In this document: in pieces, positions 14,415-50,740 of the stretch
How the letters are laid out: each line of letters starts with the position of its first letter
Position numbering within the stretch: the first letter of the stretch is position 1
DNA from: Escherichia coli
Lineage (GTDB): Bacteria; Pseudomonadota; Gammaproteobacteria; Enterobacterales; Enterobacteriaceae
Assembly (NCBI RefSeq): GCF_003334405.1
Contig: NZ_QOWM01000004.1
Reading direction: 5' to 3' (one strand)
DNA: 64,000 bases
Made by a program: the position numbers and the translations under genes
The notes under the pieces: generated by a model
The model's database searches: none
The model's input: the letters and a program-made list of their open reading frames with translations, nothing else
Told to the model about the DNA's origin: nothing

Positions 14415-14637
14415 GATGTAAAGTCTACAACGTAGTTGAAAACTTACAAGTGTGAACTCCGTCAGGCATATGAAAAAAAAGTCTTGTATAAGGTATGTTT
14501 AATCTTTTTTGTCAGCGACAATTTACAGAAGAGAATCGCGGAAACCGCTTCAGACAAGCCTCCGCAAGGAAAATTAGTCACGACTGAAAGCATTGGCTGG
14601 GCGACAAAAAAAGTTCCAGGATTAATCCTAAATTTAC

Positions 14638-15147
14638 TTAATGATACAAATTAGAGTGAATTTTTAGCCCGGAAAGTTGTCTCGTGGCGTGAGAGGATGC
14701 GCTTACCGGACGCATAATAAACCCCATAGCGTTACCTTCATTTGCCGCATCAACAAGTTCAGCATGCTCTTCTTCAGTCAAATCATCTGCCAACCAACCG
14801 ATCACCACACTGTAATTGCCCGTGCGTAAAGCGCGAACCATTGACTCCACAGTGTGGCAAGGGGAGAGCTGGCTAATCTGCATTACTTTCGTTAAGGGTA
14901 GCCCAGATGCCTGAACCCATTCCCGACTCAGTTTTTGTTGCGGTGTTAACCAGAGTTGCCAGCGCGATTGCTGACCGAGTTGCTGTAACAATGGCAACAG
15001 TAGAAGTTGCGTCATCATGGGCTGATCTTCGCGATAGACAACTTCACTGATAAGCCCGGCTGTAGTGTTTTCCGTAGAGACACGCGCAATTTTACTTGCT
15101 GCGGATGAGAACGACGAAGAACGATGTGCATAGCCTGAAGTGTACAT
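14638..15147 (-). CDS. sulA: SOS cell-division inhibitor SulA
   Basis: ORF 14638..15153 trimmed to [13 protein letters not shown] (169 aa). Confidence 0.93.
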
Positions 15148-15169
15148 AATCAATCCAGCCCCTGTGAGT

Positions 15170-15189
15170 TACTGTATGGATGTACAGTA
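15170..15189 (-). promoter_or_regulatory. LexA operator (SOS box) of sulA
   Basis: Exact 20-bp palindrome TACTGTATGGATGTACAGTA (CTGT-N8-ACAG) just upstream of the sulA start. Confidence 0.9.
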
Positions 15190-15365
15190 CATCCAGTGAC
15201 AACAAAGATCAACCCTATTTTCGGAAAGAGCCTCGCAAATTTTGTCGTTGGTGACGGGAAAACATAAATTAATCTTGCCCCTTAAGAATAAGTTGCCTAT
15301 TTTCGTAGTTAACGGATCCGTTAATGTGAATCATTCTTTTATGTTATGATTTTAAAAGGAATTTT

Positions 15366-15995
15366 ATGAAAAGCCTCTCCTATAAGCGGATCTATAAATC
15401 ACAAGAATACCTGGCAACGTTGGGCACAATTGAATACCGATCATTGTTTGGCAGTTACAGCCTGACCGTTGACGACACGGTGTTTGCGATGGTTTCTGAT
15501 GGTGAGTTGTATCTTCGGGCTTGTGAGCAAAGTGCACAGTACTGTGTAAAACATCCGCCTGTCTGGCTGACATATAAAAAGTGTGGCCGATCCGTTACCC
15601 TCAATTACTATCGGGTTGATGAAAGTCTATGGCGAAATCAACTGAAGCTGGTGCGTCTGTCGAAATATTCTCTCGATGCAGCGCTGAAAGAGAAAAGCAC
15701 GCGCAATACCCGGGAAAGACTGAAAGATTTGCCCAATATGTCTTTTCATCTGGAAGCGATTCTCGGGGAGGTGGGGATTAAGGATGTACGGGCGTTACGT
15801 ATACTTGGGGCAAAAATGTGTTGGTTGCGACTGCGGCAGCAAAACAGTCTGGTGACAGAAAAGATTCTGTTTATGCTTGAAGGTGCCATTATCGGCATTC
15901 ATGAAGCTGCGCTCCCGGTGGCACGCCGCCAGGAGCTTGCAGAATGGGCTGACTCTCTTACGCCGAAACAGGAGTTTCCTGCGGAACTTGAGTAA
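15366..15995 (+). CDS. sxy: Competence regulator Sxy (TfoX)
   Basis: 209-aa ORF MKSLSYKRIYKSQEYLATLG... Confidence 0.92.
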   Translation: MKSLSYKRIYKSQEYLATLGTIEYRSLFGSYSLTVDDTVFAMVSDGELYLRACEQSAQYCVKHPPVWLTYKKCGRSVTLNYYRVDESLWRNQLKLVRLSKYSLDAALKEKSTRNTRERLKDLPNMSFHLEAILGEVGIKDVRALRILGAKMCWLRLRQQNSLVTEKILFMLEGAIIGIHEAALPVARRQELAEWADSLTPKQEFPAELE

Positions 15996-18111
15996 TCTGG
16001 CGTTGCAGACGACCAATCTCAGGCAGTAATGCAATCAATAATCCAACTTGTTGTACGACCAGAGGTTCTTTGCTGTCTGCCCGTGGTTCAAGTTGCTGCA
16101 TCCGCTGTTTCAGGCTAGCTAATGCCTCATTGACGCGTTCTTCATCAGCAGGTTGATGATGTAACGCGTCATCAACATAGCAAACTGCGTCATCAAGAAA
16201 CGCCAGAATTTCAGGATTAGTTAACTGCTCCCGGTGAGCACCGAGGGCTGAGATATAGCTGGTAAACGTATGGTTAAGGCACAGCAACCGAAACGCGGCT
16301 TCGCGAATTTGCGGGGTAACGTTCGGCTCGCTGGACATATTTGATACCACCGACGCCAGCTCAGCATCACGGTTGTGTGCATCGCGGCGGGCAATACGAT
16401 ACGCCAGACGGTTATCACGCCCCTGATGGTATTGCTCCAGTATGGCATCGAGATACCGACAGTTGGCCTCTGTGGCGCGTTCGAGCATGCGCGGCAGATT
16501 GCGAAACTGCCAGTCAGGCCAGATGTAGCTCACTGCCGCCCACGCAATGGCACAACCAATCAGCGTATCGATTACGCGAGGTAACGCTACTTCAAAACCT
16601 TCACCCAGTAAGTTAAAACACAGTAGCACCAAAAGTGTGATGAACATCGTTGCATGAGCGTATTGCACGTTACGGAAGGCAAAAAAGAGCACGCCGGTAA
16701 TAACCAGCAGCACCAGCTGCCCTTCCAGTGATGGCACAAACCACAGCACAGGAATGCCAATGGCGATACCTACCAGCGTACCAATAATCCTTAACTTCAG
16801 GCGGTGGCGCGTGGCGTTATAGTTTGGCTGGCAGACAAACAAACTTGTCAGCAAGATCCAATACCCGTGATGCATTCCGGTTATCTGAATGATGGCGTAG
16901 CCGAAGCACAACACCAGCGACATTCTTACCGCATGACGGAAGAGGGCGGATTCCGGCGTGAAGTGACGGCTAAGACGCAGCCAGATATCACTCAACCCGT
17001 GCGGGCTGTCATCAGCGAGCTCATTTTCGTCATTATTATGGGGTAGTGCCTGGGCCTGTTCTGATTCAATTGTTGCCAGTTGGGCATCAATGGCGCGTAA
17101 ATTGTTCAGCAAAAATCCCAGTGTTTTGAGTAAATCGGCGGGTGCGCCGTTATCGCGCATCCGCTCCAGCGCAGCATCAATATGCGTAAAAGCGCGCTCA
17201 AAATGCGGATCATGTTGATAAGGCTGACGCAACAAAATACAGCGTGACAGTTGCTGGCACGCCTGGCCCTGCATCGACATCAGCCGCTGAAAACGGAACA
17301 GCACGTCGCTGTGGCGAAAATGTTCACGCAATGTTTGATACTGAATATGAGAAGAGCTGGCACGCTCGTGAATATCCTGTGCGACAAAGTAATAATGCAG
17401 CGTGCGACGCGTTCCCCGTTGACCACGATCGCCACGTAAGCGGGTCAGCAGCGAGAGTTTCGTCTGATTCAATGTCGCCATCAGCAGACCGTTGGCGAGA
17501 GCCAAATCGTACAGCGGTGCCTGGCTTTGATCTTCAATATCAGGATCAAACATGCGCGACTTGAGCTCAAGATAACGCGCCAGTTGTTCATAGCAACGCG
17601 CCAGGTTGTCCTGCAGCGGGCGGACCGGGAACAGCAGATGACCAATAAGTGTCAGGACGTTGTACCAGACGGCACCGGCCAGCAGATACATCGGCTGCTG
17701 ATACCAGTGCTCATACAGTGATGTTCCCAACATAGTGTAAATGGCGATCAGCAATGCACCGAAGGCAATTGTTGCATAGCGTTGACCCAGACCGCCGAGC
17801 AAAATGAAGCCGCTGGTAGAGAGCGTTAAGCCAATCGCAAATAGCCAGGGCCAGGGAAACAGCAATTCTACTGAGGCCGAGGCGATAAAAAAGCAGAACA
17901 GCGTAATGATGAGGTTACGCAAACGTCCCGCCAGTCGGTCATCGAGATCGGTCAGCGCCGCTGCCACCATCCCCAGCGTTAGCGGAATCGTCAGTTTTAC
18001 ATCACCCAGCCACCACGGAAACGCTGTGGTTCCACAAAGCGCAATAAAAATACGCGCGTAATACAGCCAGGCGCTGTTCCAGGTATAGCGTTTGAGCAAA
18101 GGACTTAGCAT
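15958..18111 (-). CDS. yccS: Inner-membrane protein YccS (FUSC-like putative efflux protein)
   Basis: ORF 15958..18120 (720 aa); start placed at MLSPLLKRYTW to give the 717 aa I recall, but the 18120 start is possible; multiple hydrophobic segments in both halves. Confidence 0.85.
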   Translation of the reverse strand: MLSPLLKRYTWNSAWLYYARIFIALCGTTAFPWWLGDVKLTIPLTLGMVAAALTDLDDRLAGRLRNLIITLFCFFIASASVELLFPWPWLFAIGLTLSTSGFILLGGLGQRYATIAFGALLIAIYTMLGTSLYEHWYQQPMYLLAGAVWYNVLTLIGHLLFPVRPLQDNLARCYEQLARYLELKSRMFDPDIEDQSQAPLYDLALANGLLMATLNQTKLSLLTRLRGDRGQRGTRRTLHYYFVAQDIHERASSSHIQYQTLREHFRHSDVLFRFQRLMSMQGQACQQLSRCILLRQPYQHDPHFERAFTHIDAALERMRDNGAPADLLKTLGFLLNNLRAIDAQLATIESEQAQALPHNNDENELADDSPHGLSDIWLRLSRHFTPESALFRHAVRMSLVLCFGYAIIQITGMHHGYWILLTSLFVCQPNYNATRHRLKLRIIGTLVGIAIGIPVLWFVPSLEGQLVLLVITGVLFFAFRNVQYAHATMFITLLVLLCFNLLGEGFEVALPRVIDTLIGCAIAWAAVSYIWPDWQFRNLPRMLERATEANCRYLDAILEQYHQGRDNRLAYRIARRDAHNRDAELASVVSNMSSEPNVTPQIREAAFRLLCLNHTFTSYISALGAHREQLTNPEILAFLDDAVCYVDDALHHQPADEERVNEALASLKQRMQQLEPRADSKEPLVVQQVGLLIALLPEIGRLQRQITQVPQETPVSA

Positions 18112-18129
18112 AAAGGCCATATTAGTGGA

Positions 18130-18576
18130 TTATTCAAAACGACGACGTGCATTGGCTTCACGCGCAGCTTGCGCTGTTTCTACCGATACCACGCGACGAC
18201 CAACCGGCCATAGTGCAATAGCGGCAATTTTAAAGTTCGCAATGCCGACAGGAATGCCAATGATTGAAATACATTGTGCGATGCCCGTTGCAATGTGCAT
18301 CAGGCATAACCACCAGCCAAAGAAAATCAGCCAGAAAATATTCAATACCGTACCGCCAGTATTCAGCAGCACATTTTTGCCAGCCGGGTTCAGTTCATCG
18401 ACATGAATAGCTTCATTGCCATAAGGCACCAGAGACAGTTTAGTGATCTCCCAGCAGGATCGTGTCAGCGGTAAGGTAAAAATCAGCACAATACTGACCA
18501 GAGTCGCCAACAGCCAGCCCAGAGTGGTGGCAAATCCGCCAAGCACAAAGTTCAGAATGTTCAAAACGGTACGCAT
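18130..18576 (-). CDS. yccF: Inner-membrane protein YccF
   Basis: 148-aa hydrophobic ORF immediately upstream of yccS on the same strand. Confidence 0.9.
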   Translation of the reverse strand: MRTVLNILNFVLGGFATTLGWLLATLVSIVLIFTLPLTRSCWEITKLSLVPYGNEAIHVDELNPAGKNVLLNTGGTVLNIFWLIFFGWWLCLMHIATGIAQCISIIGIPVGIANFKIAAIALWPVGRRVVSVETAQAAREANARRRFE

Positions 18577-18698
18577 AAAACCTCGCTTTACTGTGGTTTT
18601 CAGTAATGGGCGGCAATTGTAACGTTTTTTTGGGCTGGAGCACGTTTTCTCTGACGGTTACACTGATAAGAAATAATTTCGTGTGGATCTACAGAGTC

Positions 18699-20753
18699 AT
18701 GGAACTGAAAGCGACAACGCTTGGAAAACGTCTGGCACAGCACCCTTACGATCGGGCGGTGATCCTCAATGCCGGGATTAAAGTCTCCGGCGATCGCCAC
18801 GAATACCTTATTCCTTTCAATCAATTACTGGCGATTCACTGTAAGCGCGGTCTGGTATGGGGCGAGCTGGAATTTGTACTGCCGGACGAAAAAGTGGTGC
18901 GTCTGCACGGCACCGAATGGGGCGAGACGCAGCGTTTTTACCATCATCTTGATGCTCACTGGCGGCGGTGGAGTGGCGAGATGAGCGAAATTGCGTCTGG
19001 TGTTTTACGCCAGCAACTGGATTTGATTGCCACGCGCACTGGGGAAAATAAATGGCTGACGCGTGAGCAAACCTCTGGCGTGCAGCAACAAATCCGCCAG
19101 GCTTTGTCGGCGTTGCCGTTGCCGGTTAACCGACTGGAAGAATTCGATAACTGCCGTGAGGCGTGGCGTAAATGTCAGGCCTGGTTGAAAGATATTGAAA
19201 GCGCTCGGTTGCAGCATAACCAGGCGTATACCGAAGCCATGCTTACCGAGTATGCGGATTTTTTCCGCCAGGTCGAGTCTTCACCGCTGAATCCGGCGCA
19301 GGCCCGGGCAGTCGTTAATGGCGAGCATTCTCTGTTAGTGCTGGCAGGTGCAGGAAGCGGAAAAACGTCGGTGCTGGTGGCCCGTGCAGGCTGGTTGCTG
19401 GCGCGTGGTGAAGCGTCCCCTGAGCAAATTTTATTGCTGGCGTTTGGTCGCAAAGCCGCTGAAGAGATGGACGAGCGGATTCGCGAACGGCTACATACCG
19501 AAGACATTACCGCACGCACGTTTCATGCGCTGGCGCTGCATATTATTCAGCAGGGCAGCAAAAAAGTTCCGATAGTCAGCAAACTGGAAAATGATACCGC
19601 TGCCCGTCATGAACTCTTTATTGCTGAGTGGCGCAAGCAATGCAGCGAAAAGAAAGCGCAGGCGAAGGGCTGGCGGCAATGGCTGACGGAAGAAATGCAG
19701 TGGTCAGTGCCAGAAGGTAACTTCTGGGATGATGAAAAATTACAGCGTCGCCTTGCCTCTCGCCTCGATCGCTGGGTAAGTCTGATGCGGATGCACGGTG
19801 GTGCACAGGCAGAAATGATTGCCAGTGCACCCGAAGAGATTCGCGATCTGTTCAGTAAACGTATCAAGTTGATGGCCCCGTTATTAAAAGCCTGGAAAGG
19901 TGCGCTGAAGGCAGAAAACGCTGTCGATTTTTCGGGCCTTATTCATCAGGCGATTGTGATTCTGGAGAAAGGTCGCTTTATCAGCCCGTGGAAGCATATT
20001 CTGGTTGATGAATTTCAGGATATCTCGCCGCAGCGGGCAGCGTTGTTAGCGGCATTACGCAAGCAAAACAGTCAGACGACGTTGTTCGCTGTTGGTGATG
20101 ACTGGCAGGCGATTTACCGATTCAGCGGTGCGCAAATGTCGCTCACCACCGCTTTCCATGAAAACTTTGGTGAAGGCGAACGCTGTGATTTAGACACGAC
20201 TTACCGTTTTAACAGTCGTATCGGTGAGGTGGCAAACCGGTTTATTCAGCAGAACCCAGGCCAGCTGAAAAAGCCGCTAAACAGCTTAACCAATGGAGAC
20301 AAAAAAGCCGTCACGTTATTGGATGAGAGTCAACTTGACGCTTTGCTGGATAAGCTCTCTGGTTATGCCAAACCGGAAGAGCGCATTCTGATCCTGGCGC
20401 GTTACCATCACATGAGGCCTGCCAGCCTGGAAAAAGCGGCAACACGCTGGCCGAAGTTGCAAATCGACTTTATGACCATTCATGCCAGCAAAGGGCAACA
20501 GGCGGATTACGTCATCATCGTTGGCTTGCAGGAGGGAAGTGATGGTTTTCCGGCTGCGGCGCGGGAGTCGATTATGGAAGAGGCGCTACTGCCACCGGTT
20601 GAGGATTTCCCGGACGCTGAAGAACGGCGGTTAATGTACGTGGCGCTGACCCGGGCACGCCATCGGGTATGGGCACTGTTTAACAAAGAGAATCCCTCTC
20701 CCTTTGTGGAAATACTGAAAAATCTGGATGTGCCGGTGGCGAGAAAACCGTAA
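18699..20753 (+). CDS. helD: DNA helicase IV
   Basis: ORF 18606..20753 trimmed to MELKATTLGKRLAQ (684 aa); UvrD-like Walker A GAGSGKTS. Confidence 0.93.
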   Translation: MELKATTLGKRLAQHPYDRAVILNAGIKVSGDRHEYLIPFNQLLAIHCKRGLVWGELEFVLPDEKVVRLHGTEWGETQRFYHHLDAHWRRWSGEMSEIASGVLRQQLDLIATRTGENKWLTREQTSGVQQQIRQALSALPLPVNRLEEFDNCREAWRKCQAWLKDIESARLQHNQAYTEAMLTEYADFFRQVESSPLNPAQARAVVNGEHSLLVLAGAGSGKTSVLVARAGWLLARGEASPEQILLLAFGRKAAEEMDERIRERLHTEDITARTFHALALHIIQQGSKKVPIVSKLENDTAARHELFIAEWRKQCSEKKAQAKGWRQWLTEEMQWSVPEGNFWDDEKLQRRLASRLDRWVSLMRMHGGAQAEMIASAPEEIRDLFSKRIKLMAPLLKAWKGALKAENAVDFSGLIHQAIVILEKGRFISPWKHILVDEFQDISPQRAALLAALRKQNSQTTLFAVGDDWQAIYRFSGAQMSLTTAFHENFGEGERCDLDTTYRFNSRIGEVANRFIQQNPGQLKKPLNSLTNGDKKAVTLLDESQLDALLDKLSGYAKPEERILILARYHHMRPASLEKAATRWPKLQIDFMTIHASKGQQADYVIIVGLQEGSDGFPAAARESIMEEALLPPVEDFPDAEERRLMYVALTRARHRVWALFNKENPSPFVEILKNLDVPVARKP

Positions 20754-24291: not shown

Positions 24292-24570
24292 ATGTCGAAA
24301 GTCTGCATAATTGCCTGGGTTTACGGGCGAGTTCAGGGCGTAGGATTTCGCTACACCACACAGTACGAAGCGAAAAGACTGGGTTTAACCGGGTACGCCA
24401 AAAATCTTGACGATGGCAGCGTGGAAGTGGTTGCTTGCGGTGAAGAAGGGCAGGTGGAAAAATTAATGCAGTGGTTAAAGAGTGGCGGCCCGCGTTCTGC
24501 GCGTGTAGAACGGGTGCTCAGCGAGCCGCATCATCCCTCGGGGGAATTAACCGATTTTCGTATCCGTTAA
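24292..24570 (+). CDS. yccX: Acylphosphatase YccX
   Basis: ORF 24079..24570 trimmed to [21 protein letters not shown] (92 aa), the acylphosphatase signature. Confidence 0.9.
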
Positions 24571-49711: not shown

Positions 49712-50740
49712 ATGCGCGTACTGCTATTTTTACTTCTTTCCCTTTTCATGTTGCCGGCATTTTCGGCTGATAACCTGTTGCGCTGGCATGATGCGCAGCA
49801 TTTCACGGTGCAAGCCTCTACGCCGCTTAAAGCCAAACGCGCATGGAAACTGTGCGCGCTTTATCCCAGCCTGAAAGATTCATATTGGTTATCGTTGAAC
49901 TATGGTATGCAGGAGGCTGCTCGCCGCTACGGTGTGGATTTAAAAGTGCTGGAGGCAGGCGGCTACAGCCAGTTGGCTACCCAGCAAGCACAAATCGACC
50001 AGTGTAAACAGTGGGGCGCAGAGGCCATTTTGCTCGGTAGTAGCACGACCTCATTTCCCGACCTGCAAAAGCAGGTAGCAAGTCTGCCGGTGATCGAACT
50101 GGTAAATGCTATTGATGCTCCCCAGGTGAAAAGCCGCGTTGGTGTGCCCTGGTTTCAGATGGGCTATCAACCGGGGCGATATCTGGTGCAATGGGCGCAC
50201 GGTAAACCACTGAATGTGCTGTTGATGCCCGGACCCGATAACGCCGGGGGCAGTAAGGAGATGGTCGAGGGTTTTCGCGCAGCCATTGCCGGAAGCCCGG
50301 TGCGTATTGTTGATATTGCGCTTGGTGATAACGATATTGAAATCCAGCGTAACCTGTTGCAGGAGATGCTGGAACGCCATCCAGAAATCGACGTCGTTGC
50401 CGGAACGGCCATTGCGGCAGAGGCGGCAATGGGGGAAGGGCGTAACCTGAAAACGCCGCTTACCGTGGTGTCGTTTTATCTTTCACATCAGGTGTATCGC
50501 GGGCTGAAGCGGGGAAGAGTGATTATGGCTGCCAGCGATCAAATGGTCTGGCAGGGGGAACTGGCGGTTGAGCAGGCCATCAGGCAATTACAGGGGCAAT
50601 CGGTTTCTGATAATGTCAGCCCACCGATTTTAGTTCTGACGCCGAAAAATGCCGACCGTGAACATATTCGCCGCTCGCTGTCACCAGGGGGATTTCGTCC
50701 GGTCTATTTTTATCAGCACACATCAGCGGCTAAGAAATAA
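49712..50740 (+). CDS. torT: Periplasmic TMAO-binding protein TorT
   Basis: 342-aa ORF with signal peptide. Confidence 0.94.
   Translation: MRVLLFLLLSLFMLPAFSADNLLRWHDAQHFTVQASTPLKAKRAWKLCALYPSLKDSYWLSLNYGMQEAARRYGVDLKVLEAGGYSQLATQQAQIDQCKQWGAEAILLGSSTTSFPDLQKQVASLPVIELVNAIDAPQVKSRVGVPWFQMGYQPGRYLVQWAHGKPLNVLLMPGPDNAGGSKEMVEGFRAAIAGSPVRIVDIALGDNDIEIQRNLLQEMLERHPEIDVVAGTAIAAEAAMGEGRNLKTPLTVVSFYLSHQVYRGLKRGRVIMAASDQMVWQGELAVEQAIRQLQGQSVSDNVSPPILVLTPKNADREHIRRSLSPGGFRPVYFYQHTSAAKK

Follow-up and report, generated by a model that had tools for sequence, protein, structure and literature searches.

The 38-bp coding overlap of sxy and yccS in Escherichia coli is probably an ordinary result of tight convergent gene packing

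Introduction

Neighbouring genes on opposite strands whose transcripts overlap at their 3′ ends are described as convergent excludons, following the concept of Sesto et al. (PMC12288877), and the E. coli pair sxy–yccS has this arrangement. Here sxy encodes the competence regulator Sxy. The pair is one of 165 convergent excludons, each called in 50% or more of the 58 RNA-seq samples of MG1655 that were analysed (ExcludonFinder, NAR 2025, PMC12288877), so it is already catalogued in a genome-wide map. The criterion of ExcludonFinder is the overlap of coverage-defined transcript ends (PMC12288877). Genes with overlapping coding sequences receive such a call almost automatically, and therefore the listing tells little about function. 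The same study reports higher synteny for excludon pairs than for other neighbouring pairs, and validation of double-stranded RNA with p19 was not feasible there for convergent pairs (PMC12288877). An excludon in the proper sense implies that the expression of one gene suppresses the other, whereas sxy–yccS is placed in the class here by its geometry and by the published listing. It also differs from the typical member of the class in that the overlap lies in the coding sequence itself and not in the 3′ UTRs.

[quoted passage not shown] The mscL–arfA pair of E. coli, a model for regulation by antisense RNA and RNase III, resembles sxy–yccS in being convergent with complementary 3′ ends (PMC10070815). 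It differs from sxy–yccS in that effects on transcript stability and on phenotype have been measured for it.

Bidirectional intrinsic terminators at convergent gene pairs were reportedly described by Ju et al. in 2019. Such terminators and the sites of programmed collision share the geometry of sxy–yccS, and head-on collision is a plausible end for either of its transcripts. The difference is that a defined stem-loop separates the genes at those sites, and none is detectable at sxy–yccS. The collision of polymerases at convergent pairs is positioned by a stem-loop of the nascent RNA (Wang et al. 2022 preprint, bioRxiv 10.1101/2022.10.23.513370).

Results

Geometry of the overlap

The window is the whole stretch of E. 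coli DNA analysed here, a K-12-like piece of chromosome 64,000 nucleotides in length. It contains sxy (tfoX/yccR) at 15366–15995 on the plus strand (209 aa; stop TAA at 15993–15995) and yccS at 15958–18120 on the minus strand (720 aa; stop TAA, which is TTA on the plus strand, at 15958–15960), both assigned from the ORF list, RefSeq and Pfam. The upstream partner of yccS in the yccF–yccS operon is yccF, at 18130–18576 on the minus strand (ORF list, RefSeq, PMC4161252). A sequence-only reading of this locus had stated that the last 38 nt of sxy on the plus strand are also the last 38 nt of yccS on the minus strand, and the ORF coordinates and the MG1655 RefSeq annotation agree with it. This tail-to-tail overlap, at 15958–15995, is made of residues 198–209 of Sxy, residues 710–720 of YccS and the stops of both. 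Both TAA codons lie inside the overlap, and 32 nt serve as sense codons in sxy and yccS alike. Read from the sequence, the phase pairs the third codon position of each gene with the second of its partner, while the first positions face each other; therefore, any change there alters at least one protein.

The MG1655 RefSeq record NZ_CP032667.1 contains identical sxy and yccS coding sequences with the same 38-bp overlap annotated. The 3.2 kb around the junction show 100% identity to MG1655, and the region was found in all 5426 of 5426 complete E. coli genomes. Regarding domain content, Sxy has TfoX_N (aa 14–106) and TfoX_C (aa 116–194) in Pfam, and YccS has FUSC-like (aa 69–348), FUSC_2 (aa 408–528) and FUSC (aa 413–685). 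The two are a convergent overlapping gene pair, and both are genuine genes.

The junction in relatives

To compare the junction among relatives, one genome per species was scanned, which gave 80 Enterobacteriaceae loci, or 81 with MG1655; stop codons in the relatives were located by anchoring 20 codons before the end of the HSP. The genes are convergent neighbours in all 81 loci, in one case (L050, Superficieibacter electus) with two genes in between. Their coding sequences overlap in 77 of the 81, by 4, 7, 11, 14, 16, 20, 23, 32, 35, 38, 41, 44, 47 or 80 bp. The remaining four loci comprise one with an overlap of 0, one with an 11-nt gap and two with insertions of 249 and 2286 bp.

The larger insertion, at 4616–6901 of the S. 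electus locus, brings in two extra genes, one a 425-aa ORF with many hydrophobic stretches, the other coding for a 200-aa protein. Despite this insertion, the sxy ORF of the locus remains full-length, and yccS is retained over its visible 560 codons. Located 39 nt past its sxy stop is a canonical hairpin, GGGCGGCGTCAGCCGCCC, followed by the T-tract CTTTATTG, so here spacer DNA goes together with a classic terminator. The 249-bp spacer, at 4625–4873 of the locus from Enterobacteriaceae bacterium UBA5654 (L049), contains a strong inverted repeat, CCCCTGTATCCC ... GGGATACAGGGG, which is possibly an inserted repeat element or a terminator. As a side observation, the tblastn match to yccS is interrupted by an in-frame stop in Citrobacter amalonaticus AUH_CA_2023_1 (L012) and in Enterobacter cloacae DSM 26481 (L041), where yccS is a pseudogene or the sequence contains an error.

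More distant Sxy homologues, retrieved by a representative search, gave 7 loci beyond the 81. The overlap is 4 bp in an unclassified Enterobacteriaceae bacterium and 26 bp in the Erwiniaceae Tatumella and Rosenbergiella. The Yersiniaceae have gaps, of 44 nt in Chimaeribacter, where the spacer contains a 10-bp GC stem, and of 36 nt in Yersinia ruckeri. In Plesiomonas shigelloides (L093), sxy still follows ompA, the next genes are same-strand nuo (NADH dehydrogenase) genes and yccS is absent; therefore, the sxy–yccS junction is not universal in Enterobacterales. Stop codons come and go among the relatives, so the length of the overlap drifts, here from −44 to +80 nt. By this comparison, the tail-to-tail, near-spacerless layout is old, and the positions of the stop codons alone shift. 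In the Enterobacteriaceae, Erwiniaceae and Yersiniaceae relatives located, the whole block ompA–sulA–sxy–yccS–yccF–helD is syntenic, and therefore the adjacency of sxy and yccS need not be specific to the pair.

Protein tails and constraint on the overlapped DNA

The 38-bp overlap consists only of the unconserved tails of Sxy and YccS and lies outside every Pfam domain. Among 18 aligned Sxy orthologues, invariant residues extend to W194, and beyond it both sequence and length vary; Salmonella Sxy, for example, has residue 201 as its last. The variable C-terminal tail of Sxy, past this last invariant residue and the end of TfoX_C, is aa 195–209, encoded at 15948–15992 on the plus strand (alignment, Pfam and the tails of the 81 loci). 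YccS is conserved in the 81 loci up to the ...LLPEIGRLQRQI motif (residue 709), with the variable part starting after ...RLQRQI, and its Pfam domains stop by aa 685. Its variable tail, past the motif, is aa 710–720, encoded at 15961–15993 on the minus strand (81-locus tails, Pfam).

The conserved cores of sxy and yccS end at ~15947 and ~15994, respectively, ~46 nt apart. We modelled this interval as a 46-nt spacer of random sequence with a per-codon stop probability of 0.046, into which both convergent ORFs extend at random. An overlap resulted in ~85% of trials, and by this model the sxy/yccS overlap is not beyond chance expectation.

When 19 loci were aligned, their identity to E. coli was 0.58–0.72 in the bins of the overlap vs 0.69–0.94 in the adjacent bins, which puts the overlap at the low end of the junction. 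Within Escherichia, 16 of 190 compared sites differ in the overlap, and the cores of sxy and yccS differ at 148/1500 and 134/1500 sites, respectively, a comparison in which only 38 nt represent the overlap. Its divergence is thus about the total rate of the flanks (~0.09–0.10 per site), though the flanks allow synonymous change. Because the overlap changes at a flank-like rate even though each change alters a protein, selection on the Sxy and YccS tails appears to be relaxed. Dual coding constraint was considered and rejected, since the overlap is no better conserved than its flanks and both tails vary in sequence and length.

Termination signals

There is no intergenic DNA at the junction; therefore, the sxy and yccS mRNAs must be complementary at their 3′ ends, and the terminator of either gene must sit inside the other. 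We searched for such signals by several approaches. A consensus terminator scan of 14500–18700 gave six terminator-like sites, no more than in shuffled sequences, all of them away from the junction. On either strand, the junction RNA folded no more stably than shuffles (z −0.55 and +0.18), an inverted-repeat search found nothing within the overlap at 15958–15995, and there is no T-tract flanking the overlap on either side. Rfam gave no family on 14500–18700, the single hit being a chance snoRNA match (E = 0.47). When the 500 nt past each stop were scanned for a hairpin with a T-tract in the 81 loci, weak, non-conserved hairpins were found, with nothing canonical at the E. coli junction. Past the sxy stop, E. 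coli has a sole terminator-like feature, at 16103–16145 on the plus strand, inside yccS. It consists of a weak hairpin (16103–16137; −9.3 kcal/mol) with TTCTTCAT behind it, and in the 81-locus scan it occurs only in close Escherichia relatives. Weak matches that recur at +76 to +100 are antisense to the conserved ...PLVVQQVGLLIALLPE... coding region of YccS and are absent from E. coli. Finally, the Term-seq supplements of Adams et al. 2021, which we examined, have no entry for sxy, yccS or tfoX.

The composition profile of the minus strand shows a C-rich, G-poor stretch at 15750–15827, a candidate Rho-loading (rut) site with 31 C, 9 G and 20 YC dinucleotides in 78 nt. This stretch lies 130–210 nt beyond the yccS stop, antisense to sxy, has the composition of a rut site, which is C-rich and G-poor over about 70–80 nt, and may load Rho on the yccS read-through RNA. 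The first 500 nt of sxy read-through RNA contain no comparable stretch.

These results refine what the sequence-only reading had concluded about termination. Its statement that the two genes cannot have independent terminators is borne out insofar as there is no intergenic DNA and the scans contain no canonical intrinsic terminator, but "cannot" is too strong, because each gene may have its own signal inside the partner. Its statement that either transcript must read into the partner holds in the structural sense: 38 nt or more of the two mRNAs can pair, and the pair is among the convergent excludons of published RNA-seq data. The scope that it saw for antisense or interference control of Sxy is plausible but drew no direct support from this analysis. 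Whenever sxy and yccS are both transcribed, a transcript overlap of at least 38 nt is unavoidable.

Other convergent junctions

Of the 26 convergent junctions counted in 164 kb of MG1655 annotation, 6 have coding sequences that overlap, by 4, 4, 4, 7, 28 and 38 bp, and four of these six fall within the window. Besides sxy–yccS, they are ycbX–zapC (719–722; 4 bp, CTAA), tusE–yccX (24567–24570; 4 bp, TTAA) and torR–torT (50713–50740; 28 bp), all of which appear in the same 2025 excludome table as sxy–yccS (PMC12288877). The commonest type in the 164-kb sample is the 4-base TTAA or CTAA overlap, in which the stops are interlocked. The torR–torT, tusE–yccX and ycbX–zapC pairs resemble sxy–yccS in that genes on opposite strands have their last few to few dozen nucleotides and their stops in common, without an intergenic terminator. 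The sxy/yccS overlap differs in its length, 38 bp being the longest of the six, and belongs to this common class of convergent overlaps.

Neighbouring features of the window

Several further observations concern the DNA around sxy and the window as a whole. The divergent intergenic region of sulA and sxy contains the palindrome TACTGTATGGATGTACAGTA at 15170–15189, which has the form CTGT-N8-ACAG of a LexA box; presumably this is the SOS box known for sulA. A promoter-like site was found by consensus scan at 14689–14718 on the plus strand, inside sulA. An antisense transcription unit over sulA turns on in stationary phase (Conway et al. 2014, PMC4161252); this unit (~14638–15153, plus strand) would run in the direction of sxy, just upstream of it. 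Matches to a CRP-S-like pattern in the window did not exceed chance expectation and did not single out the sxy promoter. Compared with MG1655 NZ_CP032667.1, the window has 11 SNPs in ~49 kb and, at ~43997–44005, is missing a 777-bp block between cspH and gfcA (IS1D with its target duplication), which makes it closely related to that record but not a copy.

Discussion

We consider that the sxy/yccS overlap is probably an ordinary convergent overlap arising from tight packing, a by-product and not a purpose-built means of regulation. Between the conserved cores, the E. coli sequence has no early in-frame stop in either direction along the ~46-nt spacer, and therefore both ORFs run through it as short unconserved tails and overlap by 38 bp. 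Regarding the fate of the transcripts, the promoter of yccF would drive transcription toward sxy, and read-through from yccF–yccS may be stopped by Rho inside sxy via the C-rich stretch at 15750–15827. Read-through from sxy would end diffusely or by collision with oncoming polymerases, comparable to the collisions described in the preprint (10.1101/2022.10.23.513370). Some mutual interference is possible, and we would regard it as a side effect and not as a selected switch for Sxy. Two facts run contrary to the packing explanation. The pair is called an excludon in at least half of the 58 RNA-seq samples (PMC12288877), and near-zero spacing is kept across the sampled Enterobacteriaceae and two Erwiniaceae genera, which could reflect selection for coupled transcription.

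A rival explanation is that the pair is a functional convergent excludon, in which transcription of yccF–yccS into sxy, or the reverse, lowers expression of the partner by polymerase collision or by RNase III cleavage of the 3′ duplex, and in which selection would keep the terminator-free junction as extra control of Sxy. Crosstalk by 3′ antisense RNA can be functional, as mscL–arfA shows (PMC10070815), and an effect of the transcript overlap on Sxy levels is plausible. Neither gene is shielded by a canonical terminator, and across Enterobacteriaceae, Erwiniaceae and Yersiniaceae the two genes stay tail to tail, spaced by −80 to +44 nt. Several observations weigh against this explanation. The presence of the pair in the published E. 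coli excludome (PMC12288877) is weakened by the ease with which overlapping coding sequences satisfy a coverage-based definition, and the higher synteny of excludon pairs (PMC12288877) by the synteny of the whole ompA–sulA–sxy–yccS–yccF–helD block. The overlapped sequence is itself unconserved, and the junction has been opened in one species by two genes and in another by a 249-bp spacer. Our literature search found no report of yccS transcription affecting Sxy or of reciprocal sxy/yccS expression, and the Term-seq supplement lists neither gene. We therefore regard a functional excludon as rather unlikely. The stronger version, in which the terminator-free, near-zero spacing has been kept across Enterobacteriaceae and Erwiniaceae because transcription of the membrane-protein operon yccF–yccS gates production of the competence co-activator Sxy by head-on collision or RNase III, as a third layer beside CRP-dependent autoregulation and proteolysis, seems distinctly improbable to us.

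The remaining explanations concern the junction itself. A bidirectional intrinsic terminator could be hidden in the overlap, with a hairpin and A/U tracts that stop both transcripts and leave minimal antisense read-through. Bidirectional terminators are frequent at short convergent junctions of E. coli, where polymerase collisions are positioned by a stem-loop of the nascent RNA (10.1101/2022.10.23.513370). In the K-12 sequence a small stem, CCG/CAGGA ... TCCTG/CGG at ~15963–15984, can indeed be drawn. This stem is broken in loci L002 and L006, both of the genus Escherichia, and the junction folds are unremarkable against shuffles, with no inverted repeat in the overlap. There is also no T-tract on either side, and both scans are without a terminator at this place in any of the 81 loci, which makes a hidden terminator very improbable. 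Some long overlaps annotated in prokaryotes stem from misprediction, so the overlap might also be an annotation artefact, with one ORF not real or its end miscalled. The stops here are unambiguous, the Pfam domains of both proteins are strong, their orthologues are conserved across dozens of genera, and the overlap is at the 3′ ends and not at the starts. On these grounds the artefact was rejected, and we give it next to no credence.

There is a practical consequence for work on this locus. Constructs or deletions of sxy that reach past 15958 truncate yccS too, and the pair is without a conventional terminator. If transcription of yccF–yccS did limit Sxy, this would help to explain the rare activation of the competence regulon in E. 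coli, and sxy–yccS would provide a concrete, testable case of an excludon formed by coding sequences.
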